A stretch of 64,000 bases of DNA from Abditibacteriota bacterium (GCA_017552965.1 JAFZNQ010000009.1:220564-284563); one strand, 5' to 3'; positions 9,604 to 31,493 are shown, counted from the stretch's first letter. The notes: generated by a model from the letters alone, not told the origin. A program made the numbers and translations.

Positions 9604-10815
9604 CTAATATCCCAATAGTGTATTGATAGTATCTATGTTTGATTTGCAGAACTCGGGCTTGTTGCCCTTGGCCCTTTCTTCCTGATATATTTCCTTGGCA
9701 GCGAGAGCGTTCTTGCGCATCTCTTCATAATTGCCCAAGTCTCCGGCCTTGATGGCGGACTTCAGCAGATTGTTGGCAGCCTTCAGCCTGGCAGAGGAGT
9801 CGTTCTTCGGCTTGTCCTCATCCTTGTCCCTGTCCGCGGGCTTGTCCCGCTCCACCTTCAGAGGGTTCACTCCCTCGCCGGAGCCGTCTTCGCCCTGAGC
9901 GGGCCTCAGCTCAAAATCGGTGTAGGGCACCTTGGAGTCGGACTTGGGCTGCTCTCTCCGGGAAGCGTACCAGTCGGACTTGGTGTCTCTCTCGTCCTGC
10001 TCCTTCCGGGGCTGAGAGCCTCCGGTCTTGATGTGGCTGCCCTTGTCCACCAGAGTATTGGGGTCCCTGACCACCCGCCGGTTGGCGTTGGCCTCCTGGC
10101 GCTGGGCCTCCAGCTGAGCCTTGTATTCGGGAGACTCGTAGGTGTAGGTCATCATGGGCCCCGTGTAGGGCTGGACCGGAGCCGGAGCGGGGGCAGAGGG
10201 CGCCGCAGCCTGAGGGGTCTCGGGGGCAAACTGCTTTATCTCCTCCCGAGCCCTGGCCTCCGCCATCCTTTTGGCCTCTTCGCGGCTGTGGTGGACCGAG
10301 ACGGCGTAGGATATGACTCCCGCTGACACGAACACGCAGCAGGCCGCCGCTATGCACATGACCCTAAAGCGCTTTTGGTCCTTGTTCTCCCTGTACCAGA
10401 GAGCCGCCTTTTCCGACCAGCTGCCGAAGGCCTTTTTTATGTCTTCAAGGGGCGTCGGGGAGCCGGCGCGTTTTTTCGAGCCGTAGAGCTTTTGCTTCAG
10501 CCTTTCGGCCTTGACCTGCTCCGCCACGCTGTCGTGGGAGACCCGTATGATCTTCAGATAGTTTTCCAGAGCCCTGGAGAGATACTCTCTCTCCCCCTCC
10601 GTGTCTCCGGCCTCCCGGTTGGCGTCGGCCAGCTTTTCGTACACGAGAGCCAGCACCGACAGCGCGTTCACGTTCTCGGGACTGGTCTCCAGTATGCTCT
10701 CGGCCAGAGTGGCGCAGTCGGCGTATTCGCCTTCGTTGTACTGATCCCACAGCAGGTCCAGCAGCTGCTTTTCTTCGCCCGGATCCGAATACTTATAAGT
10801 GTCAGTCATGGTCAT
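9604..10815 (-). CDS. TPR-repeat membrane protein with Pro/Ala-rich low-complexity region, function unknown
   Basis: N-terminal TPR-like helices, a single TM helix ([23 protein letters not shown]), a Pro/Ala/Gln-rich segment and a C-terminal TPR-like helix. The start overlaps the ruvB stop by ~14 nt. Confidence 0.6.
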
Positions 10816-11869
10816 CCTCCTTCTCCGTGAAGGACAAAAGCCCTTTTTCTCTGAGATCTACACCCAGATGGTCGTAGGCCAGCCGGGTGGCCACCCGGCC
10901 TTTGGGAGTGCGGCTGATAAAGCCCTTCTGGATGAGATAGGGCTCATGGGCGTCCTCGATGGTATCCTTTTCCTCGCCTATGGCGGCAGACAGGGTGTCC
11001 ATGCCCACGGGGCCGCCGTTAAACTTGTTGATGATAATGTCCAGGATGCGCCTGTCGGCGGCGTCCAGACCTTCTTCGTCTATCTCCAGTCTCCTGAGCC
11101 CTTCTCTGGCGCACTCCAGATCGATGGTGCCGTCCCCCATGACCTGAGCAAAGTCTCTCACCCTCTTCAGGGTGCGTATGGCTATCCTGGGTGTGCCCCG
11201 GCTCCTGGAGGCTATCTCCATGGAGCCGTCCTTGGTGATTTGGGTATCCAGCAGGCGGGCTGTCCTGTCCACTATGTGGCTGAGAGCATCCACGTCATAG
11301 AGATCGAAGTTGTGCACTATGCCGAATCTGCTCCTGAGAGGAGCCGTGATCAGCCCCGCCCGGGTGGTGGCGCCCACCAGGGTAAAGCGCTCCAGAGACA
11401 CGTTGACCGTGTAGGCTCCGGCGCCCTTGCCCACCACGATGTCCAGCTTGTAGTCCTCCATGGCGGGATACAGTATCTCCTCCACTGCCCTGTTCAGCCT
11501 GTGGATCTCGTCTATGAACAGCACCGAGTTCTTTTCCAGATTGCTGAGTATGGCCGCCAGGTCCGCCGGCTTTTCTATGGCAGGCCCGGAGGTGGAGACG
11601 ATATTCACGTCCATTTCGTTGGCGATGATATAAGCCAGAGTGGTCTTGCCCAGCCCCGGAGGTCCGTAGAGAAGCACGTGGTCCAGGGCCTCTCCTCTCT
11701 GTTTGGCAGCCTGTATGTATATATTCAGGTTGCTGACTATCTTGTCTCTGCCTATGAGCTCCGAAAAGCTGCGGGGACGGAGGGAAGATTCCTGCTCGCT
11801 GTCCTCGGGACGCCTTTCCGGCGCCACGAACCTGGGAGCCTCCGCTTCGTCATGGTGTTTGATAGACAT
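10802..11869 (-). CDS. ruvB: Holliday junction branch migration ATPase RuvB
   Basis: AAA+ Walker [21 protein letters not shown], Walker [10 protein letters not shown], sensor motifs; 355 aa. Confidence 0.95.
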
Positions 11870-11882
11870 ATCCTGTGTAGCC

Positions 11883-12479
11883 CTATTTAGTCGATTTGCC
11901 TTTGCCCAGCTGCTTGAGGGCCTTGCTGATCAGGCCGGACAGGTCGTCCGCTCCTTCCGCAGCCATGATGTCATTCACGGCCTTCCCGGCGTTGCTTCTG
12001 GTAAAGCCCAGGCCCGTGAGGGCCTCCACCGCTCTGGCTATGAGCTGGGTATCCTTGTCGCCGGAGCCGGCGCCCGCCGGGGCGTCGCCCAGCTTGTCCT
12101 TCAGATCCAGTATGATCTGCTCCGTGATCTTTCTGCCTACGCCGGGTATGCGGGCCAGGGCTGCATTGTCCCCGGTGAGGACGGCGTTCACTATTTCGGC
12201 GCTGGTCATGACGGACAGGGCGCCCAAAGCTGTCCTGGCGCCTACCTTGTTCACAGACATGAGCTGCTCGAATATGGACTGGTCCTCCTCTGTGTCAAAG
12301 CCGAAAAGGGTGATGGCGTCCTCTCTCACCACCGTAGTGACAAAGAGCTCCGTCTCTCCCTCCGCTCTGGCCAGCAGGGGGGCCGGGCAGCAGACGCTGT
12401 AGCCTACTCCTCCCACGTCCAGGATCAGACTGTCCTGCCTGACAAGCAGCACCTTTCCTCTGAGATAACCTATCATCAC
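11883..12479 (-). CDS. ruvA: Holliday junction DNA-binding protein RuvA
   Basis: MIGYLRGKV...GVGYSV N-terminal OB domain; HhH motifs [16 protein letters not shown]; 198 aa. Immediately upstream of ruvB. Confidence 0.9.
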
Positions 12480-12502
12480 AGCGCCTCCTTCGTATCAGCC
12501 GA

Positions 12503-13372
12503 TCAATAGATCACCTTGTTCAGCGGGAATTCCACTATGCCTTCGGCTCCCGCCCTCTTTACCTGAGGGATCACGTTCCTCAGGGCCTTGTTGTCCACCA
12601 CTATTTCCAGAGCCACCCAGTTCTTGTCTGTGAGCTCATTGATGGTGGGAGTATTCAGGGCCGGCAGCAGGGAGAGCACCGCGTCCAGCTTTTCTCTGGG
12701 CACGTTCATCTTCAGGCCCGAGAGGGTCTCCGCCGTCAGGGCAGCCTGCAGCATGGTGGCTATGTTTTCTATCTTTTCTCTCTTGGCAGGGTCCGCCCAG
12801 GCCTCCTTGTTGCAGATAAGGCGGGTGGTGGATACCAGTATCTCGTCCAGTATGGCCAGACCGTGGGCCTTCAGGGTGGAGCCCGTCTCTGTGCCCTCCA
12901 CAATGGCGTCCACCAGCTCGGGCACCTTTACCTCGGTGGCTCCCCAGGAAAACTCCACCTTCACGTTGACCTTCCGGTCGGCAAAGTATTTTTTGGTCAC
13001 GTTGACCAGCTCCGTGGCCACGGTCTTGCCCTCCAGGTCCTCCGCGCATTTGATGTCCGAATCCCTGGGAGCAGCCAGCACCCATCTGTAGGGCTTGGAG
13101 GTGGCCTTGGAATATATCAGCTCGCAGACCTCCACCACGTCGGCGGAGCACTCGCACACGTTGTCATACCCGGTGATGCCAAAGTCCACGGCTCCCATCT
13201 CCACGTATCTGGGGATCTCCTGCGCCCGCAGCAGTATGGCGTCCAGCTCGGGATCGTCCACGGCGGGGGTATAGGAACGGCTGCGCACGGAAAAGCTCCA
13301 GCCGGCTTTTTCAAAAAGGTTGAAGGTCGCTTCCTGCAGCGAACCTTTGGGCAAAGCTATCTTGACCAACAT
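12503..13372 (-). CDS. hisG: ATP phosphoribosyltransferase HisG, long form with C-terminal regulatory domain
   Basis: The tracked ORF 12503..13900 has a spurious N-terminal extension. The true start is the ATG at 13370-13372 (MLVKIALPKGSLQE...) with RBS AGGAGTGAAT. Contains the HisG_C regulatory domain; about 290 aa. Confidence 0.88.
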   Translation of the reverse strand: MLVKIALPKGSLQEATFNLFEKAGWSFSVRSRSYTPAVDDPELDAILLRAQEIPRYVEMGAVDFGITGYDNVCECSADVVEVCELIYSKATSKPYRWVLAAPRDSDIKCAEDLEGKTVATELVNVTKKYFADRKVNVKVEFSWGATEVKVPELVDAIVEGTETGSTLKAHGLAILDEILVSTTRLICNKEAWADPAKREKIENIATMLQAALTAETLSGLKMNVPREKLDAVLSLLPALNTPTINELTDKNWVALEIVVDNKALRNVIPQVKRAGAEGIVEFPLNKVIY

Positions 13373-13374
13373 AT

Positions 13375-15405
13375 TCACTCCTGTTTGTTGTCTGCCAGAG
13401 CCAGATATGGCTTCAGCAGAATATAATCCAATTTGTCCGGAGACACGTTTTGCTGTACCGAAAGGGCGGCGGCGGCTCCCGCAGCCTGACCCGTGGCTAT
13501 GACGCAGGGCATGATCCTGGCGGCTCCCAGGCCTTCGTGAGTGGCGGATATGATCCTGCCGCAGCACAGCAGGCCGGGTATGCTCTTCACCGTGAGACAT
13601 CTGTAGGGAATCTCGTACCAGTCTCCCGGCGGCGGAGCGGCGGACTTTTTGCCCGACTCTTTGAGGGTGTAGCCCTCGCCGGAGGCGGAATGCACGTCCA
13701 CGGGATAGGCCAGCCGGCACACTCTGTCCCTGTGCTTCATGGAGCTGAGCACGTCCCTGTCCGAAAAGACGTAGTCCCCCACCACTCTGCGGCTTTCCCT
13801 GACGCCCAGTATTTTGGCCCGCTTCAGGAGATAGGCCTTTTCGAAGCCGGGCACTCTGTCCCGGACGAACCTCAGCACCTCCCGGAGCTGCTTTTGACAC
13901 TCTCCGGTCCCCCGGGCTATGTCCCCGGGCGAGAGAGGGTCAGCGAGGGCGGCGTGGGTCTGATTGAACACCACGGCGTCATAGCGGGGGCTCTGAGTCT
14001 TGCGATAGATGTAAAATATCATGTCGCCTGGAAAGTCCGAGCCCTCTTCTTTGGCCTTGCCCACCAGTGAAAAATAGCCGGCGGGGCTGTAGTTGGAGAG
14101 GGCGGTCTCAATGACGTCCGTCCCGGGCTCCAGCTTAGGAAAGAGAAACTCCTCCGGGCGCTCCGCCACGTATGCAAGAGCCCGCCTGACGTCCACGCCT
14201 CCCACGTCAAACATGAGAGTGGCGGCCTGGACCTGTCCCTTGCTGTCACCCGTGCGGGTCTCTGCGCCGAGACAGGCGGCGACTTGCGCGTCTCCCGTGG
14301 CGTCGATGAGACGGCGGCACTCCAGAAATCTGCCTTCCAGAGCCACCGCAAAGGCGCCGTTCTGGCGTCTCACGGCGGACACGAAGCCGCAGCGGGGCAA
14401 AAAGGTCACCCCCGCTTCCCGGAGCATATCCAGCAGCGCTTCTCTCATGGCAGAGGAGTCAAAGCAGTTCTTCCTGAGAGCTCCCCGGTCCGCGAGACGC
14501 TGTCTCAATTCGTCAAACAGGCCTCCCACCAGGGGCTTGCCGTCGGAAGTGCAGTGGGTCATGAAGGGATTCACCAGACCATAGACTGCCATGCCTCCGG
14601 GTCCCGGCAGCCTGTCGCAGAGGAGCACCGAGGCCCCTGCCCGCGCGGCAGATACTGCCGCGCAGACTCCGGCCAGCCCGGCGCCTGCAACGCACACGTC
14701 ATACACGGCGGCAAATTCCTCCCTGAGTATGCCCAGCGCCCGGGCGGCGGCATCTTTTTCCGCCGCTTTTTTGGAGGCGCCTGTTCCTCTGGCGAGCGTT
14801 CTCCCACTGAATAATACGCAATTTGTAAAGGTTTTGTTGTGGGGAGGCCCGGTCTCTTCCACCGTCTCGTAGGTGGGAGCCGAGTGGAACTTGTCCTGCA
14901 GCAGAGTCTGCAGGGCCGACTTGGTGTCCACGTCCTCTATGGCTTCCAGAGCAGACTCGATGCTCTCCGAGAGCTGCCCTCGCACAAAGGCTTCGCAGAC
15001 CTCCCGGCCGCATGAGAGATATATGGCGGCTGTCAGGGCCTCAAAGGTGTCGCACAGCACCGAGGGCCGCATGACCAGCCCGGTCTTCTTTTCGTTTTCG
15101 GACACCTGTATGTATTCGTAGAGCTTCAGCCGGCGGGCAGCCTCGGCAAGACTGGGCTCGCCGATGACCACGGCCTTCATCCTGCTCAGGTCTCCCTCGC
15201 GGCAATCGGGGTATTTGTCAAAAAGGATCCGGGCGACTATCTCGCCCACTATGCTGTCCCCCAGGAACTCGAGCCTTTCGTTGTACTCGGCGTCAAGGCC
15301 GTCCTGCCGGACCGACTTGTGCACGAAGCACTGGTCCAGATAGGCGGACGGGACGAGAGGGACCCCGGCCCTTTCGGACAATTCCCCGATCTGTTTGTCG
15401 TCCAT
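13375..15405 (-). CDS. rnc: Ribonuclease III (RNase III catalytic domain plus dsRBD) fused in frame to an FAD-dependent oxidoreductase domain
   Basis: Residues 1-~228: RNase III signature NERLEFLGDS, catalytic ...DTFEALTAAIYL, and a dsRBD (PHNKTFTNCVLFSGRTLARGTGASKKAAEKDAAARAL). Residues ~232-676: Rossmann FAD-binding motif YDVCVAGAGLAGVCAAVSAARAG and an FAD_oxidored-like body. No stop codon and no internal Met/RBS at the junction (ILREEFAAVYDVCV). Its start overlaps the stop of the upstream aminotransferase gene (TGATG). Confidence 0.8.
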   Translation of the reverse strand: MDDKQIGELSERAGVPLVPSAYLDQCFVHKSVRQDGLDAEYNERLEFLGDSIVGEIVARILFDKYPDCREGDLSRMKAVVIGEPSLAEAARRLKLYEYIQVSENEKKTGLVMRPSVLCDTFEALTAAIYLSCGREVCEAFVRGQLSESIESALEAIEDVDTKSALQTLLQDKFHSAPTYETVEETGPPHNKTFTNCVLFSGRTLARGTGASKKAAEKDAAARALGILREEFAAVYDVCVAGAGLAGVCAAVSAARAGASVLLCDRLPGPGGMAVYGLVNPFMTHCTSDGKPLVGGLFDELRQRLADRGALRKNCFDSSAMREALLDMLREAGVTFLPRCGFVSAVRRQNGAFAVALEGRFLECRRLIDATGDAQVAACLGAETRTGDSKGQVQAATLMFDVGGVDVRRALAYVAERPEEFLFPKLEPGTDVIETALSNYSPAGYFSLVGKAKEEGSDFPGDMIFYIYRKTQSPRYDAVVFNQTHAALADPLSPGDIARGTGECQKQLREVLRFVRDRVPGFEKAYLLKRAKILGVRESRRVVGDYVFSDRDVLSSMKHRDRVCRLAYPVDVHSASGEGYTLKESGKKSAAPPPGDWYEIPYRCLTVKSIPGLLCCGRIISATHEGLGAARIMPCVIATGQAAGAAAALSVQQNVSPDKLDYILLKPYLALADNKQE

Positions 15406-18630: not shown

Positions 18631-18661
18631 TTGTAAGTTTTGCCCGAGGTGTGTTATAATA
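18631..18661 (+). promoter_or_regulatory. Sigma-70-like promoter for the degT-glgC-hisA operon (TTGTAA-17-TGtTATAAT)
   Basis: ttgtaa at 18631-18636; extended -10 tgttataat at 18652-18660; RBS AAGGAG 10 nt before the ATG at 18698. Divergent from the promoter above. Confidence 0.55.
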
Positions 18662-18697: not shown

Positions 18698-19810
18698 ATG
18701 ATACCTTTAGCCAACCCCAAGAAGCAGGTCGAATCCCAAAAAAGAGATCTGCTGGAAGCCATCAGCCAGGTCTTTGACAAATGTCAGTTCATAGTAGGCG
18801 ACAACGTAAAGGAGGCGGAAGCCAATTACGCCGCCAAGTGCGGAGCGTCCTACGGCATAGGAGTGAACTCCGGGACTGACGCGCTGGTGCTGGCCCTGGC
18901 TGCCTGCGGCGTGGGCAAGGATGACGAGGTCATCACGGTGCCATATACCTTCGTGGCCACCACCGAAGCCATTCTCATCAGAGGAGCAAGGCCTGTATTC
19001 GTGGACATTGAGCCCGGCACCTTCAATATAGACGTATCTCAGATCGAAGCAAAGATCACTCCCAGGACCAAAGCCATACTGCCGGTGTATCTCTATGGCC
19101 AGACCTGCGACACAGAGGCCATAGCGGACATAGCCCGCCGGCACGGTCTGAAGGTCATAGCCGATGCTGCTCAGGCCATCGGAGCCAAGAGGAACGGCGC
19201 TCCCATCGGCCGGCTGGCCGACGCCACCTGCATCAGCTTTTTCCCCACCAAGAATCTGGGGGCCTGCGGCGACGCCGGCATGATCGTCACCGACTGTCCC
19301 GAGACTGCCGAGACTGCCAGGAGCCTGCGTTTTCACGGCATGAAGCCCGGCACCTATTATTACGAACGGGTAGGCTACAACAGCCGTCTGGACGAGCTGC
19401 AGGCCGCCGTGCTGAACGTCAAGCTGCCCAGGCTGGACGAATGGAACGAAAAGCGCAGGGCCCACGCCCGCTGCTATCTGGAAGCCTTCTCAGGCACCTG
19501 TCTGCAGCTTCCTCTGGAGCAGCCCGGCAACTATCACATATACCATCAGTTCACCATTCGCTATCCCCAGCGGGACCGGCTGCGGGAGATGCTGGCCGAG
19601 CGCGGGATAGGCAGCGCGGTGTATTATCCCTTCCCTCTCCACCTGCAGCCCTGCTACGGCTTCCTGGGCTACAGGGAGGGCGACCTGCCGGTCACCGAGG
19701 CTGCGTGCAAAGAGGTCCTGTCCCTGCCGGTGTATCCCGAGCTTACAGACGAAGAGATCAGCGCAGTGGCCACCGGCGTCAGGGAATGCCTGAGCATACT
19801 GGAAAGCTAA
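18698..19810 (+). CDS. DegT/DnrJ/EryC1/StrS-family PLP-dependent sugar aminotransferase
   Basis: 370 aa; N-terminal pattern typical of sugar-nucleotide aminotransferases (IPLANPKKQ...EAEANYAAKCGASYGIGVNSGTDALVLAL; Lys motif region FFPTKNLGACGDAGMIVT). Confidence 0.85.
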   Translation: MIPLANPKKQVESQKRDLLEAISQVFDKCQFIVGDNVKEAEANYAAKCGASYGIGVNSGTDALVLALAACGVGKDDEVITVPYTFVATTEAILIRGARPVFVDIEPGTFNIDVSQIEAKITPRTKAILPVYLYGQTCDTEAIADIARRHGLKVIADAAQAIGAKRNGAPIGRLADATCISFFPTKNLGACGDAGMIVTDCPETAETARSLRFHGMKPGTYYYERVGYNSRLDELQAAVLNVKLPRLDEWNEKRRAHARCYLEAFSGTCLQLPLEQPGNYHIYHQFTIRYPQRDRLREMLAERGIGSAVYYPFPLHLQPCYGFLGYREGDLPVTEAACKEVLSLPVYPELTDEEISAVATGVRECLSILES

Positions 19811-19833
19811 TACACATACCAAGGAGACACACT

Positions 19834-21111
19834 ATGACCCCCGACATGCGAAACGTATCAGCCATAGTATTGGGCGGCGGAAAAGGCACCCGGCTCTTTC
19901 CTCTTACCAAAGAGCGTTCAAAGCCTGCAGTTCCGCTGGCGGGGCAATTCCGCCTCATAGACATACCTCTCAGCAACTGCATCAACAGCCACATCAACAA
20001 GATATACGTGGTGACCCAGTTCATGAGCCACTCCCTCAACAGGCACGTGCACAGCTCGTTCAAGTTCGACATATTCAACAAGGGCATGATCGACATTCTG
20101 GCAGCCAGCCAGAATATGAACAACACGGGCTGGTTTCAGGGGACGGCGGACGCCGTCAGACAGAACATGCAGACCGTGTTTGAGAACAACGAGGACGGCA
20201 GGGCTCTCATACTCTCCGGCGACCAGATATACAAGATGGACTTCCGCCGGCTGGTAGCTGACCATGAGGCAAAACAGAGCGACGTGACCATCGCCGTCAC
20301 AGTCAAGCCTGCCTCCGAGGCCTATCATTTCGGCTGCATGAAGGTGGACAAGGATTTCCGCATCACCAAGTTCGTGGAGAAGCCTTCCACCGATGAGCAG
20401 CTCTCCGAGCTCATCATCAAGGGCAGCAAGCTGAAGGACCTGGGCGTCACCGACGACGGGGACTACGTGCTGATCAGCATGGGCATATATCTGTTTGAGA
20501 CCCCCAGACTGGTGGAGAGCCTCAACAACGACATGCAGGACTTCGGCAAGAACATCATCCCCTGGGCCATCAACAACTTCAACGTGTTCGCCTATCCCTT
20601 CACGGGCTACTGGGAGGACATCGGGACCATCTCCGCCTTCTTCAACGCCAACATCAATCTGACGGACACGGTGCCCAAGTTCAACTTCTACGATGCTGAC
20701 AAGCCCATATACACGGCCTGCAACTATCTGCCCTCCAGCAAGATCAACGGCCACTCGTCCTTTATGCAGACCATCATATCCGACGGGACCATCATAGAAA
20801 ATTCCACCGTCACCAAATCCATCATCGGCATCAGGTCGGTGATACGGGAGGGCTGCATCCTCAACAAGGTGGTGATGATGGGTCAGGACGACTATGCTCC
20901 CGACGACAAGTATCCCATCCCCAGAGGCATAGGCAAGTATTGCCGGATCACCCGGGCCATCATAGACAAGAACGCCTGCATAGGCGACAACGTGATCATA
21001 GAGGACCAGACCGGCAAGCCCAACTGCGACGGTGAGTTTTACTACGTGAGAGACGGCATAGTCATCATACCGAAGCATGCCATAGTTCCCTCCGGCACCA
21101 TTATCAAATAA
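19834..21111 (+). CDS. glgC: Glucose-1-phosphate adenylyltransferase family (GlgC-like NDP-sugar pyrophosphorylase)
   Basis: The tracked ORF 19441..21111 has a spurious 5' extension overlapping degT. The true start is the ATG at 19834 with RBS AAGGAGA. Canonical motifs are GGGKGTRLFPLTKERSKPAVPLAGQFRLIDIPLSNCINSHINKIYVVTQF and a C-terminal left-handed beta-helix. No glgA/B/D nearby. Confidence 0.8.
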   Translation: MTPDMRNVSAIVLGGGKGTRLFPLTKERSKPAVPLAGQFRLIDIPLSNCINSHINKIYVVTQFMSHSLNRHVHSSFKFDIFNKGMIDILAASQNMNNTGWFQGTADAVRQNMQTVFENNEDGRALILSGDQIYKMDFRRLVADHEAKQSDVTIAVTVKPASEAYHFGCMKVDKDFRITKFVEKPSTDEQLSELIIKGSKLKDLGVTDDGDYVLISMGIYLFETPRLVESLNNDMQDFGKNIIPWAINNFNVFAYPFTGYWEDIGTISAFFNANINLTDTVPKFNFYDADKPIYTACNYLPSSKINGHSSFMQTIISDGTIIENSTVTKSIIGIRSVIREGCILNKVVMMGQDDYAPDDKYPIPRGIGKYCRITRAIIDKNACIGDNVIIEDQTGKPNCDGEFYYVRDGIVIIPKHAIVPSGTIIK

Positions 21112-21123
21112 AAGGAGCATATC

Positions 21124-21834
21124 GTGGAGCTTATCCCGGCCATAGACCTGATAGACGGACAGTGCGTCCGCCTGATCAAGGGCGATTTTTCCCAAAAGAC
21201 CGTATATTCCGACGATCCCGCCCGGGTGGCAGCCAAATGGGCGAAGCACGCCCGTGTCATCCATCTGGTGGATCTGGAAGGCTCGAGACAGGGGCATCCC
21301 ATAGAGCTCTCCACCCTGTCCTCCATCCGGGAGTCCGTATCCTGCCTGCTGGAATACGGCGGCGGAGTGCGCTCCGAGGAGGACATCAGGGCCATCCTGG
21401 ACCACGGAGCCGACAGGGTCATTCTGGGCACCACGGCGGCGGCAGACGAAGCCTTTACCCGGGACATGCTCTCCAAATACGGGGACAGGCTGGTCATAGG
21501 CATTGACGCCCGGGACGGCCGGGTAGCCATCCACGGCTGGGAAAAGACCACCGAATACGCTCCCGAAGAGTTCGCTCTGAAGATGCAGTCCATGGGAGCG
21601 GCCCGCATCATATACACCGACATCTCCAGAGACGGGATGATGAAGGGGGCCAACGTCCCCGCCATGAAGGAAATGGCAGAGCTTTTGTCCATACCCGTCA
21701 TAGCTTCGGGAGGCGTCAGCAGCTACGAGGACGTCAGGAGCCTGTCGGCCCTGGGTCTGCTGGAAGGCGCCATCATAGGCAAGGCTCTTTATACGGGAGC
21801 CATAGATCTCGAGGAGGCCAGCAAATGGAAATAA
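21124..21834 (+). CDS. hisA: HisA: 1-(5-phosphoribosyl)-5-[(5-phosphoribosylamino)methylideneamino]imidazole-4-carboxamide isomerase
   Basis: GTG start with RBS AAGGAG 6 nt upstream. MELIPAIDLIDGQCVRL...VDLEGSRQG...IASGGVSSYEDV (beta-alpha)8 HisA motifs; 236 aa. Confidence 0.8.
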   Translation: MELIPAIDLIDGQCVRLIKGDFSQKTVYSDDPARVAAKWAKHARVIHLVDLEGSRQGHPIELSTLSSIRESVSCLLEYGGGVRSEEDIRAILDHGADRVILGTTAAADEAFTRDMLSKYGDRLVIGIDARDGRVAIHGWEKTTEYAPEEFALKMQSMGAARIIYTDISRDGMMKGANVPAMKEMAELLSIPVIASGGVSSYEDVRSLSALGLLEGAIIGKALYTGAIDLEEASKWK

Positions 21835-22550
21835 TCCCCGGCATGGACATCATCAACGGCCAGGTGGTTTGCGCCGAAAACATCGACTGGGCAGGCAACG
21901 GCCCCATCGACCACGACCCCGTGAACGTGGCCCGTTATTGGAAGAGCCAGGGAGCCCGGCACCTCTATATCTCCGATCTGGAGGGAGCCCGCTACGGCAA
22001 GCCCATGCATCTGGACATAGTGGCCAACATCATCAAAAACGTCAACATCAAGGTGTATCTGGGAGGCGGCATCCGCAATGCCGACGCTGCGGCCCGGGCC
22101 TTTGACGCAGGCATAGAAAAGGCGGTCATCGGCACCTACGCCGCTCTGGAAAACGACTTTGCCAAATACATGTTCGACACCTACAAGGGCCGCATCATAG
22201 TATCTCTGGCCAACATGAACGGCTACGTGTCCATCCACGACTGGACCGCCAGGACCGAGGAGACCGTGTACGAGTTCGCCGGCCGCATGGAAAAGATGGG
22301 CGCCGGCACCATAGTGTACAACGACGTGAACAGAAAGGGAGCTCACGGAGGCATCAATCTCCACACCATACAGAGGATGCTCTCCTCCACCGCCCTGCCC
22401 ATCATCATAGGCTGCGGCATATCGGACATAGACGACATCAGAGAGCTGAAGAAGTTCGGCGACAGGATATCCGGAGCCGTCATGGTCTCGGCCCTCTACA
22501 AAAATCTCATATCCTACAAGGATGCGGCCGCCGCTGCAAAAGAAGTCTGA
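21825..22550 (+). CDS. Second HisA/HisF-fold paralog (HisA-like)
   Basis: MEIIPGMDIINGQVV...ISDLEGARYGKP...IIGCGISDIDDI; 241 aa; RBS GAGGAGG; overlaps the preceding hisA by 10 nt. More HisA-like than HisF-like (no HisF-type VKGV-like N-terminal motif). Confidence 0.7.
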   Translation: MEIIPGMDIINGQVVCAENIDWAGNGPIDHDPVNVARYWKSQGARHLYISDLEGARYGKPMHLDIVANIIKNVNIKVYLGGGIRNADAAARAFDAGIEKAVIGTYAALENDFAKYMFDTYKGRIIVSLANMNGYVSIHDWTARTEETVYEFAGRMEKMGAGTIVYNDVNRKGAHGGINLHTIQRMLSSTALPIIIGCGISDIDDIRELKKFGDRISGAVMVSALYKNLISYKDAAAAAKEV

Positions 22551-22569
22551 AAAAAAGGGCTGCGGCTCT

Positions 22570-22598
22570 TTACAAACCCTCAAAAAAAGAGTATAATA
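22570..22598 (+). promoter_or_regulatory. Candidate promoter for tRNA-Leu (TTACAA-17-TATAAT)
   Basis: ttacaa at 22570-22575 and tataat at 22593-22598, 10 nt before the tRNA 5' end. Confidence 0.4.
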
Positions 22599-22607
22599 TA
22601 TTTGTAC

Positions 22608-22690
22608 GCCGAAGTGGTGGAATGGCAGACACGCATGGTTCAGGACCATGTGCCCGCAAGGGCATAGGAGTTCGACTCTCCTCTTCGGCA
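22608..22690 (+). tRNA. tRNA-Leu (anticodon CAG), long variable arm
   Basis: Cloverleaf folded by hand: acceptor GCCGAAG/CTTCGGC, anticodon stem CATGG/CCATG with loop TTCAGGA, long variable arm, T-arm AGGAGTTCGACTCTCCT. 83 nt, no encoded CCA. Confidence 0.85.
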
Positions 22691-22692
22691 TA

Positions 22693-22726
22693 AAAAGGAC
22701 CTCTCTCGAGGTCCTTTTCTTTTTCA
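22693..22726. terminator. Bidirectional rho-independent terminator (after tRNA-Leu on plus; after the DUF6273-like gene on minus)
   Basis: aggacctc-tctc-gaggtcct hairpin with a T run on the top strand (ttttctttttc) and an A run preceding it, which gives a T run on the minus strand. Confidence 0.75.
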
Positions 22727-26984: not shown

Positions 26985-28904
26985 TTATTCGTAACAAAGG
27001 GTGATTGCCCTGCTGGGCACGTCGGCAAGCTCCTGATCGGCGTATGCCACAGTGACGAAGTATTTGAGAGAGCCGGTGGCAAACACTCCGGTGAGAGGCA
27101 CGGGACCAAAGGTAAAGCCTCCGTCGGCCCTCACGGTCACCACCTCGCTCTTCAGGACTCCGGAGATGTTGAGTATGCCGGTCTTGTTGTTGGAATACAT
27201 GACGGTGCATATCAGCATCCTGCCGGGCAGAGCCTTGCCGGTCACGGTGATATCCTTTACCCCCGCATTGTTGGCCGGGGACAGGATGTATATATCTCTG
27301 TCGTCCACGGCGGGAGCGGGAGCCTGAGAGTCGGCAGCGGCTCCGTCAATGAGCCCCGCGGTCACGGCGTCGGTCTCATCCTTGGGAGCGTCCACGGCAG
27401 GCGCCTCGGTGGCGGGAGCAGCGGGTGTCTCGGCCGCGGGAGCAGCGGGGGTCTCGGCTGCAGGTGCAGCGGGTGTCTCGGCTGCGGGAGCAGCGGGAGC
27501 CTCGGCCGCGGGAGCAGCGGGAGTCTCGGCCGCGGGAGCAGCGGGCGTCTCGGCCGCGGGAGCAGCGGGAGTCTCGGCTGCGGGAGCGGCGGGAGCCTCG
27601 GCTGCGGGAGCAGCAGGCGTCTCGGTTGCGGGAGCAGCAGGCGTCTCGGCTGCGGGAGCGGCGGGAGTCTCGGCTGCGGGAGCAGCGGGAGTCTCGGCCG
27701 CGGGAGCGGCGGAAGTCTCGGCCGCAGGAGCGGCGGGCGTCTCGGCCGCGGGAGCGGCAGGCGTCTCGGCCGCGGGAGCAGCGGGAGCCACGGGCGACAG
27801 TCTGGTGACCTTGCCTATCTTGCTCACCACGGCGTCCTTGCCGTTGACCGTCATCACGTATCCCGTATCGGAGGATATGTTGACGCCCCGACTGGACATA
27901 TAGACCATGAGCTTTGCCTTATTGAGGGCCTTGGCAGGCACCTTCATAAAGCCCACGTAGCTGCCCTCCGACTCTTCTCTGAGCACGGTCTTGGTGCCGT
28001 CCACGTATCTCAGGTCGCAGGACACTCCCACGTGAGAGGTGCCCTTCACGTTCACCAGTATCAGGTCGCCGGTCTTCAGGGCGTCGGGAGAGCTGACCAG
28101 CACGTCGTCTATGCTGAGCTCCACAGGAGCAGTGTCCGGAGTCACCGCAGGCTGAGCAGGCTCTGTCTTGGCAGGCTCGGTCTTGGCAGGCTCGGTCTTG
28201 GCGGGCTCCGCAGGCTTCACGGGCTCCGTCTTGGCAGGCTCGGTCTTGTCGGGCTCCGCAGGCTTCACGGGCTCCGTCTTGGCGGGCTCTGTCTTGACAG
28301 GCTCCGCAGGCTTCACAGGCTCCGTCTTGGCGGGCTCGGTCTTGGCAGGCTCGGTCTTGACAGGCTCCGCAGGCTTCACGGGCTTCACGTCCTCAAAGCC
28401 CACCACGATCAGGGTCCATATATTCTTGTTGTCCGGATTGATCCTGGCGTAGAAGCTGTTGCCCACCTTCAGCTTGTCCACGGACACCAGCACGGAGGAG
28501 GACTCCAGGTATATGGAGCACTTGTCCGCCACCACGTATTCGGGAGTGGCTTCGCCGTCGTCCACCGTCAGGGTGCTGCCGTTGATGCCCACTATGGTGC
28601 CGGATATCATGTCAAAGGATGCGGCCGCCTTGGTGATGATGTTGTTGTCATTCACCTCGCAGGACACGGAGTCGCCGGGAGAATAGTCCAGAAGGCCCAC
28701 CTCAAAGGGCTTGGTGTTCACCAGTCCTCTGGTCAGCCTGCTGGAGGCGTCCACCCGGACGGTCACGTCGCCGTCGGCTGTGGCTATGGTGATATTCTTG
28801 GAGCCGTTGTCCACGCTCCCGACCATACCGCTGACGGTCCTGGCGGAGACGCCGGTAGCCACTGCCAGCAAAAATATGCATACGCAGATCAAATATTTAT
28901 TCAT
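26985..28904 (-). CDS. Secreted cell-surface protein with two tandem low-complexity repeat arrays (PAEPVKTEPAKTE x~7 and PAAPAAET x~20)
   Basis: Signal peptide MNKYLICVCIFLLAVATGVSA; beta-rich domains separated by Pro/Ala/Glu/Thr repeat linkers; 639 aa. Confidence 0.75.
   Translation of the reverse strand: MNKYLICVCIFLLAVATGVSARTVSGMVGSVDNGSKNITIATADGDVTVRVDASSRLTRGLVNTKPFEVGLLDYSPGDSVSCEVNDNNIITKAAASFDMISGTIVGINGSTLTVDDGEATPEYVVADKCSIYLESSSVLVSVDKLKVGNSFYARINPDNKNIWTLIVVGFEDVKPVKPAEPVKTEPAKTEPAKTEPVKPAEPVKTEPAKTEPVKPAEPDKTEPAKTEPVKPAEPAKTEPAKTEPAKTEPAQPAVTPDTAPVELSIDDVLVSSPDALKTGDLILVNVKGTSHVGVSCDLRYVDGTKTVLREESEGSYVGFMKVPAKALNKAKLMVYMSSRGVNISSDTGYVMTVNGKDAVVSKIGKVTRLSPVAPAAPAAETPAAPAAETPAAPAAETSAAPAAETPAAPAAETPAAPAAETPAAPATETPAAPAAEAPAAPAAETPAAPAAETPAAPAAETPAAPAAEAPAAPAAETPAAPAAETPAAPAAETPAAPATEAPAVDAPKDETDAVTAGLIDGAAADSQAPAPAVDDRDIYILSPANNAGVKDITVTGKALPGRMLICTVMYSNNKTGILNISGVLKSEVVTVRADGGFTFGPVPLTGVFATGSLKYFVTVAYADQELADVPSRAITLCYE
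27400..27790. repeat. Coding tandem repeat, 24 bp unit (gcgggagcagcgggNgtctcggcY) x ~16, encoding PAAPAAET
   Basis: Near-identical 24 bp units in frame within the surface-protein gene; third-position variation only. Confidence 0.85.
28147..28390. repeat. Coding tandem repeat (~39 bp unit; ggctccgtcttggcaggctcggtcttg...) encoding PAEPVKTEPAKTE
   Basis: Repeated ggctcggtcttggcaggc / ggctccgcaggcttcac blocks within the same gene. Confidence 0.7.
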
Positions 28905-29024: not shown

Positions 29025-31493
29025 ATGAGACTCTGTAAATTCTATATATTTTCCCTGATACTTCTTCTTGCGGGGGCTGCCGCCTTTTCCCAGGGGAAGG
29101 TGACCACCAACGCCATCTATCAGGATTCCTCCGGCACCAAATACGAGTGGAAGATCATGGATTCGGGCAACATCATCTGGGACGGCATCTCCTACACCCC
29201 CTGCGGCGTCAGGGTGATCTTTGACAGCCTCTCTTCTCCCGACACCCACGCCCTCTCGGCCCGGGACAAGTCGGTGATAGGCGAGCTGGCTGCCTCCAAC
29301 GTGGACTCTGTGATCATCTCCAACGGCTATCAGCTCACCAATTCCGATCCCGCCGTGCTCCAGCAGATCATGGACCTGCTGGACGAAAACGGCATCAGAT
29401 ACGGCATAGAGCTGGGTGAGGAGACCGGCGATCCCCTTGCGGGCTACCCGGTGGACCCTGCCCGCTGGAGGATAGACGGCCCCTACCCCGACAAGGTCAT
29501 CACCGGCATGTGGAAAGACGTGGACTCCGGCCTCTACGTGGTGGTCAGCAAGTCCGACAGCTCCGTCATCGAGTCCGGCAGTCTGGAGGTCAACGCCAAC
29601 GGGCAGGCCACGGTAAATCTGGAGCGCTCTCTGGGCCCGGACACGGCCCTGCTGGTATATCCCCACCAGACCCGTTTCGGCAGCTTTGACATATGGGAAG
29701 GCTATGACGCCCTGAGAGACGTGATAGTCAAATACTTCTCTCAGGTCAGGCCCGGAGAAGGTCTGAGATTCTTTTACAATCCGGTGAACGCCTACAAACT
29801 GGCCTTTGCCGCCGGCGACGGCAGCTTCGTGCCGGTGAGCTCCAAGTTCTCTCTGGAATTCGAAGGCTATCTCACCAAGAAGCATTTTCACAACGGCATG
29901 CTCTCCCACAAATGGGGCATCAGCCCCAATCTGCCGGAGATATCCGACTATCTCAGCCTGCTGCCCCTCTGGGCCCAGCTGCGCAACTCCTCCAGAGGTC
30001 TGGGCCAGATGTACGACCTGTCCGGCCGCAAGTTCCTCAGGGCCAACACCAACGGCTCCTACTGGCAGGACCTGACGGACTTCAGGACGGACTCGGTCCG
30101 GGAATACATGTCCTCCGCAGGTGACGTGCTGAGGAAGAACGTGGCCAACGTGCCCATCATATACTCCGCCTGCAGGGACCGGGTCAATCAGACCTATTTT
30201 ATCAATGCGTCCTCCTCCAGCCCCGACGGCTTTGCCTACGTCTGCGACGGCGAGGACCGGGAGCTGGGCTACGACATATCCCTGCTCTACAATCTGAGCA
30301 ACACCTATCCCAAGACCACCTGGATCGCGGCGGTGAACCCCGCCATGAGCGTCGACAGCCTCATAGATCTGGGTTACAAGGGCTTCTTTTTTGACTACAA
30401 TGACGGCGCCGGCATCGCCAAAGCCAACGAGTTCAGGGGCAAGTGCCACAACATACAGGCCTACAGGCCCAACGTCATAGAGTATCCCACCTCTTCGGAG
30501 ATAGGCATCACCCCTCAGCTGCTGGACGAGCAGGGGCACACCTACTGGCTCCCCTCTCCCAAGGGCGCAGACGTCATGCGCTTCGGCGAGGACGTATTTG
30601 GCTACAACATAGTGGGCACCGGCGACTACGTCATATGGGCCCGGGAGGACAACACCCAGATCACCTTCCCCGGCATCAAGAACACGGCTCCCAAGGCCGT
30701 CTTTCCCGCCGACGTGGAGATAAAGAAGGCCAAGGCTGCCTCGTCCAGGTCCAACCCTCTGTACACCATGACCATCGGCACCCGTCCCACCGTGCTGCGC
30801 AACATCAGCTTTTCCCTGTTTTTCCCCAGGGAGACGGCCGAGGCGGAGATAGCCAAGATGGAAAGGCTGGTCAAGTCCACTCCCATAGACGATGACACGG
30901 AGAAAAAGCTCATGGACCTGAGCATCAAGAACATCAAGGAAGTGCTGAAAAACGGCGCCTTCGGCACCGCCTTCAGCATGGCCCGGGAGATCATAGGCCA
31001 GACCAGCCGTCTCAGCGACGCCAGCCTGTGGATCGAGTCCAGCACCCTGACCCGCACTGCCTTCACCGGCTTCAGGGCCCGCAAGGGCGCCACCGACGGC
31101 ACCGTGCTGCTGCTGGACGAGCAGGAGCGGGCTCCCCTGACGGACTACTACGCCTCCATGACCATCAACGTGCAGAACAACAAGTCCTACGAGCTCTGGA
31201 TAGCCATGTCCCGGAGCGCCGACTCTTCTCCCTGCGAGATATCCAACAGCGGCAGCCCCTGGATGGCGCCGGACACCTCCACGGAGAGGCCTTACGGCGA
31301 CGGCCTGGCCTGGTACAAGGTGGGCACCGCCAGCCTGTACGAGGGGCCCCAGACCATAGACGTAAAGGTCACCGGTCCCAATCAGGCCGGCAGATATTAT
31401 CTGGCCATCGACGCCATCCTGCTGGTGGCGGAGGACGAAGACTTTGTCCCGCAGGCCGACAGCAAGCCCGCCTTTGTGAACATTCTGAGGTAG
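29025..31493 (+). CDS. Large secreted protein of unknown function (822 aa)
   Basis: Signal peptide [24 protein letters not shown], no recognisable catalytic motif. TGgTATAAT extended -10 at ~28953-28961 and RBS AAGGA upstream; only 4 nt separate its stop from uvrA. Confidence 0.65.

Follow-up and report, generated by a model that had tools for sequence, protein, structure and literature searches.

In a rumen-type Abditibacteriota (Armatimonadota) MAG, we found that the gene order degT-glgC-hisA1-hisA2 is best read, with a probability of roughly 55%, as a mosaic unit of unrelated parts, in which HisA1 would be a true ProFAR isomerase and HisA2 a re-tooled relative that probably acts on or binds a ProFAR/PRFAR-like ligand. 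HisA2 belongs to a large and so far uncharacterised family of the Armatimonadota, which comprises at least 124 sequence clusters; across 124 clusters, conservation reaches at least 95% at 72 positions.

Gene content and signals of the region

The region lies in a window of 64 kb (the whole stretch of DNA analysed). Its four open reading frames on the plus strand, degT (18698-19810), glgC (19834-21111), hisA1 (21124-21834) and hisA2 (21825-22550), coincide exactly with those of the initial annotation, as do their spacings of 23 nt and 12 nt, the 10-nt hisA1/hisA2 overlap (ATGGAAATAA) and the ribosome-binding site (AAGGAG or GAGGAGG) before each of the four starts. A consensus promoter scan, which returned 6 sites here where shuffled sequences gave 2.0±1.5, recovered the sigma-70-like candidate annotated upstream of degT (18631-18660, plus strand; TTGTAA-18-TATAAT, 10 of 12 consensus matches plus an extended -10 TG). 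The four genes are co-directional and closely packed, and are probably transcribed as a single unit. The tRNA-Leu (CAG) and terminator reported to follow the block are indeed present, the former at 22608-22690 (plus strand; ARAGORN; Rfam RF00005, 53 bits) and the latter as an intrinsic-terminator-like hairpin at 22693-22718 (plus strand; 11-bp stem, T tract CTTTTTC), but the tRNA has a stronger promoter-like site of its own (22569-22597, plus strand; TTTACA-17-TATAAT, 11/12 in the consensus scan) and so may lie outside the operon.

The first gene encodes a 370-aa DegT/DnrJ/EryC1-family protein (Pfam PF01041, 392 bits), in agreement with the original family call, and its Schiff-base lysine was located by motif in SFFPTK185 (codon 19250-19252). 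DegT scored below every NCBIfam equivalog cutoff, the top one being PseC (256 vs 423); its closest solved structures were 7b0d, followed by the 3-aminotransferases QdtB, DesV and WbpE. It is predicted to be a PLP-Lys sugar aminotransferase, nearest to the NDP-3-keto-sugar 3-aminotransferases, and degT has a dN/dS of 0.12-0.16.

Read from the ATG at 19834, the second gene encodes a protein of 425 aa, probably a glucose-1-phosphate adenylyltransferase. Its assignment to the GlgC family stands: like GlgC of the cyanobacterial and plant type, it carries the Pfam NTP_transferase domain, a C-terminal LbH_GLGC domain and the GGGKGTRL loop, and it matches the NCBIfam GlgC model NF002772 over its full length (residues 5-424), although its scores fall short of the curated equivalog cutoffs by about 2% (NF002772, 526.5 bits vs 537; TIGR02091, 417 vs 424.9). 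The nearest relatives of the protein are plant and bacterial ADP-Glc PPases (closest solved relative, the potato small subunit, 360 bits), its gene has a dN/dS of 0.05-0.07, and it looks like a genuine ADP-glucose pyrophosphorylase. No glgA or glgB lies nearby, which is normal for the scattered genomes of Armatimonadota.

As initially noted, hisG is the only other his gene in the window and adjoins the DNA-repair genes ruvA/ruvB. This long form with a HisG_C domain (12503-13372, minus strand; Pfam PF01634 and PF08029; tblastn with E. coli HisG) is isolated from the rest of the his genes and flanked by an RNase III-FAD fusion gene and ruvA; besides hisG, the hisA pair and glgC, the 64 kb yielded no gene of the his, trp or glg sets. 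The absence of glg and his partners had been used to argue for a new pathway. This argument fails, since scattering of genes of the his, trp and pur operons is documented for Armatimonadota genomes (PMC4959169).

HisA1, HisA2 and the hisA tandem

Both HisA copies match His_biosynth (PF00977) strongly, as first called, and the HisA equivalog cutoff (TIGR00007, 229 bits) is passed by HisA1 only (236 aa, GTG start; 255 bits). The canonical residues D7, R15, H47, R83, T103, D129, W145, D176 and G225 are present in 17-18 of 18 HisA1 orthologues; HisA1 is, as judged from its sequence, a canonical ProFAR isomerase. HisA2 (241 aa, 33% identical to HisA1 in the window) scores 167 against the same cutoff and falls below all HisA, HisF, PriA and WbuZ cutoffs. 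Its AF2 model (pLDDT 88.5) has PriA/HisA as best Foldseek matches (TM 0.83-0.87), and the protein is a HisA-derived (βα)8 barrel with the two-fold pseudo-symmetry of the Salmonella enterica and Thermotoga maritima enzymes.

HisA2 is set apart by its residues. In characterised relatives the role of catalytic acid falls to D176/D175, stacking on ProFAR to W145, and gripping of the distal phosphate to R83/S103 (PMC9088769). HisA2 retains the β1 general base as Asp8 (codon 21846-21848, plus strand; equivalent to SeHisA D7; Asp in 16/16 loci and 113/113 scorable clusters), the R83/T103 grippers, the stacking W145 and the GGG and SGG phosphate loops. The conserved β5 Asp (SeHisA D129, TmHisA D127, HisF D130) is replaced by Ala129 (codon 22209-22211, plus strand; Ala or Gly in 16/16 loci and 117/117 clusters), and the catalytic acid (SeHisA D176, MtPriA D175) by Lys171 (codon 22335-22337, plus strand; Lys in 16/16 loci and 117/117 clusters). 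The full signature, D7-C15-Y/F47-R83-T103-A/G129-D144-W145-K176-V225, occurs in 16/16 loci and 117 further clusters and was not found among about 260 other HisA homologues. With a dN/dS of 0.08-0.14, no higher than that of HisA1, HisA2 is functional and under purifying selection. A loop-1 motif, Cys14-x-Cys16-x-x-His19, present in approximately 87-97% of the family, is mostly lost in the subclade of the window, so the function of HisA2 there may depart from that of the mainstream type. In some databases, members of the family carry the label HisA.

A phylogeny of the HisA copies supported the monophyly of HisA2 proteins (NJ bootstrap 165/200 and 117/150); the deep nodes are weak (HisA1+HisA2, 51/200; HisA2 with single-copy HisA, 27/150). 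Two Armatimonadota loci with a single-copy HisA (L028 and L037) have canonical catalytic sites, yet share the block ALNGYVAVR.WQARTEERA.DFA with HisA2. Identities are 0.55 between single-copy HisA and HisA1, 0.48 between single-copy HisA and HisA2, 0.43 between HisA1 and HisA2, and 0.35 between HisA2 and generic HisA. The best reading of these sequences is that HisA2 arose by tandem duplication of hisA within the phylum.

The gene order proved conserved in part: the hisA1-hisA2 tandem is phylum-wide (about 20 loci), HisA2 always co-occurring with, and lying downstream of, a canonical hisA, but the four-gene order does not extend beyond one shallow Abditibacteriota subclade of 6 loci (L001-L004, L008 and L030; HisA2 identity at least 58%). 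About 16 further Armatimonadota loci carry hisA1-hisA2 without degT or glgC, in the order hisD-hisB-hisA1-hisA2 (L010, L020, L023), in the order hisH-hisA1-hisA2 (L012, L016, L035, L036) or among heterogeneous neighbours; taken together, the his clusters follow the order hisD-hisB-hisH-hisA1-hisA2. Genes for GlgC relatives at 43-50% identity adjoin neither degT nor hisA. In L003, L004 and L008 the block was retained at saturated dS while both flanks were rearranged, so some selection for its co-expression is possible; such flank-independent retention hints at selection for linkage, beyond a model of pure accident.

Alternative readings of the block and of HisA2

The initial annotation had proposed that the four genes jointly produce a novel sugar or sugar nucleotide bearing an amino group, with GlgC activating a sugar-1-phosphate, a HisA-type Amadori step giving a ketose and DegT transaminating it. 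Close spacing, one promoter-like site, a common style of ribosome-binding site and the flank-independent retention of the block fit this scheme, as do sugar-modifying genes near the pair elsewhere (PIG-L in L012 and L035; NAD-epimerase in L005, L013 and L016) and the precedent of WbuZ, AglZ and HisF2, HisF paralogues that serve amino-sugar or acetamidino-sugar modification beside DegT-type genes. We nevertheless hold it very unlikely: degT and glgC are linked to the pair in that single subclade, outside which the pair accompanies hisD, hisB and hisH, never degT or glgC, or has mixed neighbours; the more distant GlgC relatives lack degT/hisA neighbours; HisA1 is fully canonical and GlgC stands at the ADP-Glc PPase threshold; and no dehydratase or oxidoreductase in the cluster would supply the keto-sugar for DegT. 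Both HisA proteins also score far below the WbuZ (108 and 88 vs 300) and AglZ (102 and 86 vs 310) cutoffs, and the cluster lacks the HisH-like partner of those systems. That both copies are simply scattered, redundant ProFAR isomerases has hardly any plausibility left. Their shared PF00977 match and the HisA label would speak for it, but the catalytic acid is Lys in 100% of 133 HisA2 sequences, every HisA cutoff is missed, and the family is a separate, conserved clade of very long standing. The earlier suggestion of a diverged, neofunctionalised second HisA is supported.

What HisA2 does instead can be argued in several ways. It might, although we consider this unlikely, be a TrpF-type phosphoribosyl-anthranilate (PRA) isomerase from a duplicated PriA-like bifunctional ancestor whose ProFAR reaction HisA1 kept, working with the β1 Asp as base, substrate-assisted acid catalysis and Lys176 paired with the anthranilate carboxylate. 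TrpF activity is created in TmHisA by D127V. Exchange of HisF Asp130 for a non-negative residue likewise creates it (PMC2667513). The Asp residues lost in HisA2 are those whose negative charge disfavours PRA, D129 repelling its carboxylate (PMC9088769), and at PriA position 143, where a basic residue matters for bifunctionality (PMC4732765), HisA2 has R or H (15/16) and single-copy Armatimonadota HisA has R. However, SubTrpF proteins, natural TrpF-specialised descendants of PriA, have retained the two catalytic Asp but not W139/W145 and R83 (PMC5404923), the exact opposite of HisA2, which keeps W145 (117/117 clusters) and R83 (116/117) and has lost both Asp. PriA requires D175 for the TrpF reaction (PMC9088769), none of about 25 loci has a linked trp gene, and mono-phosphorylated PRA would have no use for the strictly conserved distal-phosphate site. 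The HisA2 model is structurally most similar to actinobacterial PriA, SubHisA, SubTrpF and PriB, barrels of the HisA family in which genome events were followed by a shift in specificity, but these are single-copy replacements with both catalytic Asp, whereas HisA2 is a tandem paralogue and belongs to another phylum. Among laboratory variants engineered or selected for TrpF activity, TmHisA D127V and HisF D130V (also with D176V) are changed at the same β5 and β6 Asp positions as HisA2, and in Salmonella HisA evolved by innovation-amplification-divergence one copy likewise diverged after tandem duplication; HisA2, in contrast, is natural and ancient, has Lys at 176 and retains ProFAR-type binding residues. 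It is slightly less probable again that HisA2 is a non-catalytic pseudo-enzyme that binds ProFAR/PRFAR as partner or regulator of HisA1, like HisZ for HisG, and channels or protects labile intermediates. The loss of catalytic but not binding residues, a tight translational coupling suggestive of 1:1 stoichiometry and the purifying selection are consistent with this, but the general base Asp8 is invariant though not needed for binding, and the new invariant polar residues K176, D144, C15 and Y47 around the reactive site resemble a rebuilt catalytic centre. Replacement of HisF is very improbable. HisA2 is translationally coupled in the usual place of hisF right after hisA (hisH-hisA1-hisA2), no canonical hisF lies within ±10 kb at any of about 25 loci, and a bis-phosphate-type pocket is retained; HisF, a paralogous barrel, binds the bis-phosphorylated PRFAR. 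The slot argument is weak, because the sisters L028 and L037 have hisH-hisA with neither HisA2 nor an adjoining hisF, suggesting that hisF is simply unlinked in Armatimonadota. Moreover, HisA2 lacks an equivalent of the essential D130, matches HisA1 rather than HisF at HisF-specific ammonia-gate and other diagnostic positions (R5, C9, E46, N103), and is 24% identical to E. coli HisF vs 43% to HisA1 (TIGR00735, 77 vs cutoff 295); HisH is ordinary in sequence (37-44% identical to E. coli HisH), and Fimbriimonas is reported to lack only hisE and hisB (PMC4072686).

A proposed role for HisA2 in Armatimonadota

The reading we prefer is the mosaic one. The region would be a probable single transcription unit put together from unrelated parts, with hisA1-hisA2 as an ancient pair, coupled in translation, that forms the end of a broken-up histidine operon. 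Only the rumen-type Abditibacteriota subclade has degT and glgC ahead of this pair. After the duplication HisA1 would have stayed a real isomerase while HisA2 was re-tooled. The pocket half for the non-reacting AICAR-ribotide part of ProFAR/PRFAR (R83/T103, G81/G102, W145) and the β1 base are kept, and the reacting-ribose side is changed (D176K, D129A/G, R15C, H47Y/F, G144D, G225V). Because of these changes HisA2 is probably unable to run the canonical Asp/Asp Amadori isomerisation, although residual isomerase activity is possible, as a protonated Lys176 could in principle act as general acid. Both ligand and chemistry are read from alignment positions. HisA2 probably still binds a bis-phosphorylated ProFAR/PRFAR-like intermediate of the histidine pathway that HisA1 makes or uses, most likely carrying out a different, Lys-dependent chemistry on it and, less likely, holding or handing over a labile intermediate.

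The conserved hisA pair and its genomic setting

In the window, a degT-like gene (18698-19810), a glgC-like gene (19834-21111), a hisA gene with a GTG start (21124-21834, encoding HisA1) and a second HisA-like gene (21825-22550, encoding HisA2) follow one another on the forward strand. All four ORFs lie exactly where the initial annotation had placed them, spaced by 23 nt and 12 nt and then joined by a 10-nt overlap ATGGAAATAA, and the ribosome-binding site claimed for each gene was recovered as AAGGAG or GAGGAGG 5' of every start. The promoter claimed upstream of degT corresponds to a sigma-70-like site at 18631-18660 (10/12 matches, extended -10), and a promoter scan of the region gave 6 sites versus 2.0±1.5 in shuffled sequences. 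Downstream, tRNA-Leu(CAG) (22608-22690) and a terminator-like hairpin (22693-22718) are present as described. The tRNA has a separate near-consensus promoter-like site (22569-22597, forward strand, TTTACA-17-TATAAT, 11/12), better than that of the operon, and the region has a single clear terminator, 3' of the tRNA and within the forward-strand block 22569-22718. No regulatory RNA or leader was found upstream of the cluster, and the tRNA was the sole Rfam element at the cluster.

Apart from hisG, no further his, trp or glg gene was found in the window; the initial annotation likewise gave hisG as the only other his gene. This hisG stands alone, with an RNase III-FAD fusion gene on one side and ruvAB on the other. 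The fusion gene (13375-15405, reverse strand) encodes an unusual 676-aa protein combining RNase III (Ribonucleas_3_3, Ribonuclease_3, dsrm) with an FAD-dependent oxidoreductase (PF12831); it is flanked by an aspartate-type aminotransferase gene and hisG-ruvA-ruvB, and is kept in loci L001, L002 and L006. Beside uvrA, two divergent large ORFs (26985-28904, reverse; 29025-31493, forward) encode 639 and 822 aa without any Pfam match, and both have high GC3, as in real genes.

Homologous loci, from relatives placed in Armatimonadota by GTDB-type records, were compared for gene order. The order degT-glgC-hisA1-hisA2 was found in L001/L002, L003, L004 and L008, and truncated in L030, with HisA2 identity of at least 58%. 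The hisA1-hisA2 pair occurs without degT or glgC in L005, L009-L017, L019-L021, L023 (with long-read frameshifts) and L035/L036, its genes usually overlapping by 10, 7, 4 or 1 nt or lying within 6-14 nt of each other. Among these loci, the pair follows hisD-hisB in L010, L020 and L023 and hisH in L012, L016 and L035/L036; L028 and L037 carry hisH-hisA with a single canonical HisA. Within ±10 kb, every locus lacked trp genes, hisI and a canonical hisF. With E. coli proteins of the His and Trp pathways as tblastn queries on all the loci retrieved, the sole matches were hisG, hisD, hisB, hisH and both HisA copies. A search outward from homologues of HisH added further hisH-hisA1-hisA2 and hisH-hisA loci and no hisF. 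Where GlgC is a more distant relative (43-50% identity), its gene adjoins neither degT nor hisA. In the test of gene-order conservation that the initial annotation had proposed, hisA1-hisA2 was thus widely kept, and the degT-glgC linkage was confined to L001-L004, L008 and L030. These data indicate that the conserved functional unit is hisA1-hisA2 within histidine biosynthesis, and that degT-glgC is a lineage-specific addition to it.

The other neighbours of the pair are heterogeneous, including GH106, C1 peptidase-lectin, cytochrome bd, PTS enzyme I, MutS2, PfkB kinase, thiamine-binding, PIG-L and NAD-epimerase proteins; an apparent link to sugar-modifying genes (PIG-L, NAD-epimerase) proved inconsistent across about 30 more neighbours. 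A PIG-L/LmbE-family deacetylase of 480-490 aa is encoded directly 3' of hisA2 in two separate lineages (L012 7347-8786, overlapping hisA2 by 4 nt; L035 12663-14138) and in none of the remaining loci. In the L009 block 10729-14231, a small thiamine-binding (YkoF-like) gene is convergent and downstream of hisA2, and L010 and L019 have unannotated ORFs of similar size, convergent 3' of hisA2. Beyond the small ORF, a GH106-like rhamnosidase of ~1030-1070 aa occupies equivalent positions in L009, L010, L019 and L020 (confirmed by Pfam for L009, L019 and L020, and suggested by its size for L010). Such a neighbourhood points to shared local synteny more than to any link in function. In L023, a 2.44-Mb long-read Armatimonadetes contig, hisA2 (10768-11492) is broken into three frames, probably by homopolymer sequencing error rather than as a pseudogene, since all family motifs are intact.

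DegT, GlgC and the proposed sugar pathway

The initial annotation had joined HisA2 functionally to DegT and GlgC in a candidate new amino-sugar/nucleotide-sugar pathway. DegT belongs to the DegT/DnrJ/EryC1/StrS family (PF01041, 392 bits versus a gathering threshold of 19.8), and its Lys185 in SFFPTK is the PLP-binding Lys, indicating an aminotransferase rather than a dehydratase type. It missed the cutoff of every NCBIfam equivalog model and so reached no specific family; its closest solved structures are 7b0d, followed by the NDP-3-keto-sugar 3-aminotransferases QdtB, DesV and WbpE. GlgC combines NTP_transferase and GlgC-type LbH (LbH_GLGC) Pfam domains, scores just under the curated cutoffs (NF002772, 526.5 versus 537; TIGR02091, 417 versus 424.9), and its close solved relatives are all ADP-glucose pyrophosphorylases, headed by the potato small subunit. 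By sequence, both GlgC and HisA1 look canonical.

The pathway link is not supported, given gene dispersal together with the gene-order data: the linkage is lineage-specific, and the pair elsewhere lies in his clusters. The missing his and glg partners had been taken as evidence for the pathway, but Armatimonadota are documented to scatter genes grouped in operons elsewhere, those for histidine, tryptophan and purine biosynthesis being named explicitly (PMC4959169), and the absence of such partners therefore weighs little in the window. Moreover, the four-gene cluster encodes no enzyme able to make the keto-sugar needed by DegT, GlgC and HisA1 look ordinary, and the sugar-amidation HisF paralogues were not matched, the two HisA copies scoring 88.4 and 108.1 with the WbuZ model (cutoff 299.7) and 85.8 and 102 with the AglZ-HisF2 model (cutoff 310). 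Whereas a HisH-like amidotransferase adjoins WbuZ and AglZ-HisF2, no such GATase gene was found in the four-gene cluster. The four-gene block survives at saturated dS through flank rearrangements (downstream in L003, on both sides in L004 and L008), which leaves a small probability of a real functional link among the four genes; we regard such a link as very improbable. Where a phylum has a scrambled gene order, finding genes for enzymes of different pathways packed tightly and co-directionally is poor evidence for a new pathway.

Residue signature and origin of HisA2

HisA1 passes the HisA model TIGR00007 (255.3 bits, cutoff 228.95) and HisA2 fails it (167.3 bits); the two are 33% identical. 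Established positions of Salmonella/E. coli HisA (SeHisA, whose numbering is used here) were mapped onto 18 HisA1 and 16 HisA2 sequences. HisA1 retains D7, R15, G19, H47, R83, T103, D129, W145, D176 and G225 (17-18 of 18), with Asp at both 129 and 176 in 18/18. HisA2 retains D7, D50, G81, R83, G102, T103, W145, R175, G177 and G204 in the 16 loci, and has the β1 Asp base, the R83/T103 distal-phosphate grippers, the stacking W145 and, in its predicted structure, the (βα)8 fold of HisA, but both the loop 6 catalytic acid D176 and the β5 D129 are replaced. H47 is changed to Y or F, D129 to A or G, G144 to D, D176 to K and G225 to V in 16/16 loci, and R15 to C in 15/16. This diverged signature supports the earlier suggestion that the second HisA has been neofunctionalised.

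The same signature was found by profile search in at least 117 further clusters made at 90% identity (K176, A/G129, W145 and T103, each 117/117; R83, 116/117; C15, 115/116; D144, 114/117), and was not found in about 260 other HisA homologues. The family had appeared tiny, with 2 entries in the best 150 of a representative-library search, a query-bias artefact removed by the Armatimonadota-built profile. Two-domain matches of ~490 aa in the representative-library search, considered as HisA2 fusions, proved to be HisA-HisF fusions of the ordinary kind, their residues being canonical. Variation at catalytic positions is also seen in other HisA homologues of unrelated origin, namely P0242 (D176Q, with a 75-aa C-terminal extension), P0351 (D7E and D176A) and P0292 (D129A), which may be further offshoots of the HisA family.

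Across 124 HisA2 clusters, 72 positions are at least 95% conserved, and a loop-1 motif was found with C14 in 86%, C16 in 97% and H19 in 89%. Most members thus carry C14-x-C16-x-x-H19 plus H30 (86-97% conserved), which could bind a metal above the active site. The window subclade mostly lacks the motif (V14, C16, N19), retaining just C16 and H30; loop 1 of the window HisA2 (residues 14-19) is encoded at 21864-21881.

The AF2 model of HisA2 has a pLDDT of 88.5, and its top fold matches are PriA/HisA (TM 0.83-0.87). The dN/dS of HisA2 is 0.08-0.14, versus 0.10-0.20 for HisA1, indicating that HisA2 is not decaying. HisA2 was monophyletic in 165/200 and 117/150 NJ bootstraps, in simple distance-based trees that support this grouping and leave deep nodes without resolution. 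Mean identity is 0.63 within HisA1, 0.57 within HisA2 and 0.43 between them; generic HisA is at 0.44 to HisA1 and 0.35 to HisA2, and E. coli HisF at 0.24 to HisA2. The single-copy Armatimonadota HisA proteins (L028 10625-11353, L037 5850-6593) have canonical catalytic positions, carry the distinctive β5-α5 block of HisA2, ALNGYVAVRGWQARTEERAVDFA (ALNGYVAVR.WQARTEERA.DFA), and are intermediate in identity (0.55 to HisA1, 0.48 to HisA2). These data would fit a tandem duplication of hisA inside the phylum, after which the downstream copy diverged fast. The single-copy proteins may also be PriA-like bifunctional enzymes, since Arg occupies their PriA-143 position. No description of a HisA paralogue in Armatimonadota was found in the literature, and a search of the Fimbriimonas supplementary tables gave no entries for hisA, hisF or trpF.

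Candidate function of HisA2 and its meaning

With no hisF beside the pair, HisA2 might be thought to fill a hisF slot as a HisF-type cyclase. Lineages sister to those bearing HisA2 lack both HisA2 and an adjacent hisF, however, which makes this argument weak, and HisA2 scores 76.7 bits with the HisF profile TIGR00735 (cutoff 294.55). HisF needs catalytic D11 and D130, and the D130 equivalent is A or G in HisA2; at the ammonia-gate positions R5/E46/K99, HisA2 has the residues of HisA1 (E/Q, R, R/K), the alignment at E167 being uncertain. HisF replacement was rejected as very improbable on these residues and on the sister lineages. A TrpF-type role has a precedent, as TmHisA D127V, in which the β5 Asp charge is removed, reportedly gains TrpF activity. 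Removal of the β5 Asp charge also gives rise to TrpF activity on HisF (PMC2667513), and position 143 of PriA is matched by a basic residue in HisA2. Yet the naturally TrpF-specialised SubTrpF proteins retain both Asp and have lost W145 and R83 (PMC5404923). A TrpF-type PRA isomerase would be expected to keep the catalytic acid/base, with the ProFAR-specific W145/R83 dispensable or lost, and HisA2 has the reverse pattern. Nor does HisA2 fit the bifunctional HisA/TrpF enzyme PriA, which uses a D11/D175 catalytic pair in organisms lacking trpF: HisA2 has Lys at the D175 equivalent and scores 103 with TIGR01919 (cutoff 306).

The catalytic acid is D176 in SeHisA, D175 in MtPriA and D126 in TmTrpF; W145 stacks on ProFAR, R83 and S103 hold the distal, non-reacting phosphate, and D129 repels the PRA carboxylate (PMC9088769). 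Set against the HisA2 pattern, these roles indicate that the half of the pocket for the AICAR-ribotide of ProFAR/PRFAR and the β1 base are preserved, while the residues around the reacting ribose appear to have been rebuilt. Canonical Asp/Asp Amadori isomerisation by HisA2 is unlikely. From its residues, we favour the reading that HisA2 still binds a bis-phosphorylated intermediate of the histidine pathway, on which it would perform a different, probably Lys-dependent chemistry; a role as a binding partner of HisA1 seems less likely. HisA2 may be a new enzyme of natural origin, a hisA tandem duplicate fixed across Armatimonadota in which the Asp acid became Lys, a Cys-x-Cys-x-x-His loop was gained in most members, and a reaction new to the HisA/HisF/PriA/TrpF superfamily arose on a bis-phosphorylated histidine-pathway intermediate. 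We put the probability of this full reading at roughly 0.35.

HisA, HisF, TrpF and PriA are a textbook system for the gain of new (βα)8-barrel enzyme functions, for which the evidence to our knowledge has so far come mostly from directed evolution and actinobacterial single-copy enzymes. HisA2 appears to be a natural, ancient tandem hisA duplicate still physically coupled to its parent, and with Asp to Lys at the acid position, a rebuilt catalytic centre and a preserved substrate-holding half, it would let duplication and divergence be tested directly on a natural example. Annotation pipelines call these proteins HisA or 'HisA/HisF-related TIM barrel protein [Armatimonadota bacterium]', as in the cluster names where given, and pathway reconstructions for Armatimonadota may therefore be wrong in either direction. 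If HisA2 is indeed a new enzyme, it would parallel, in nature, the innovation-amplification-divergence experiments done with hisA in the laboratory.
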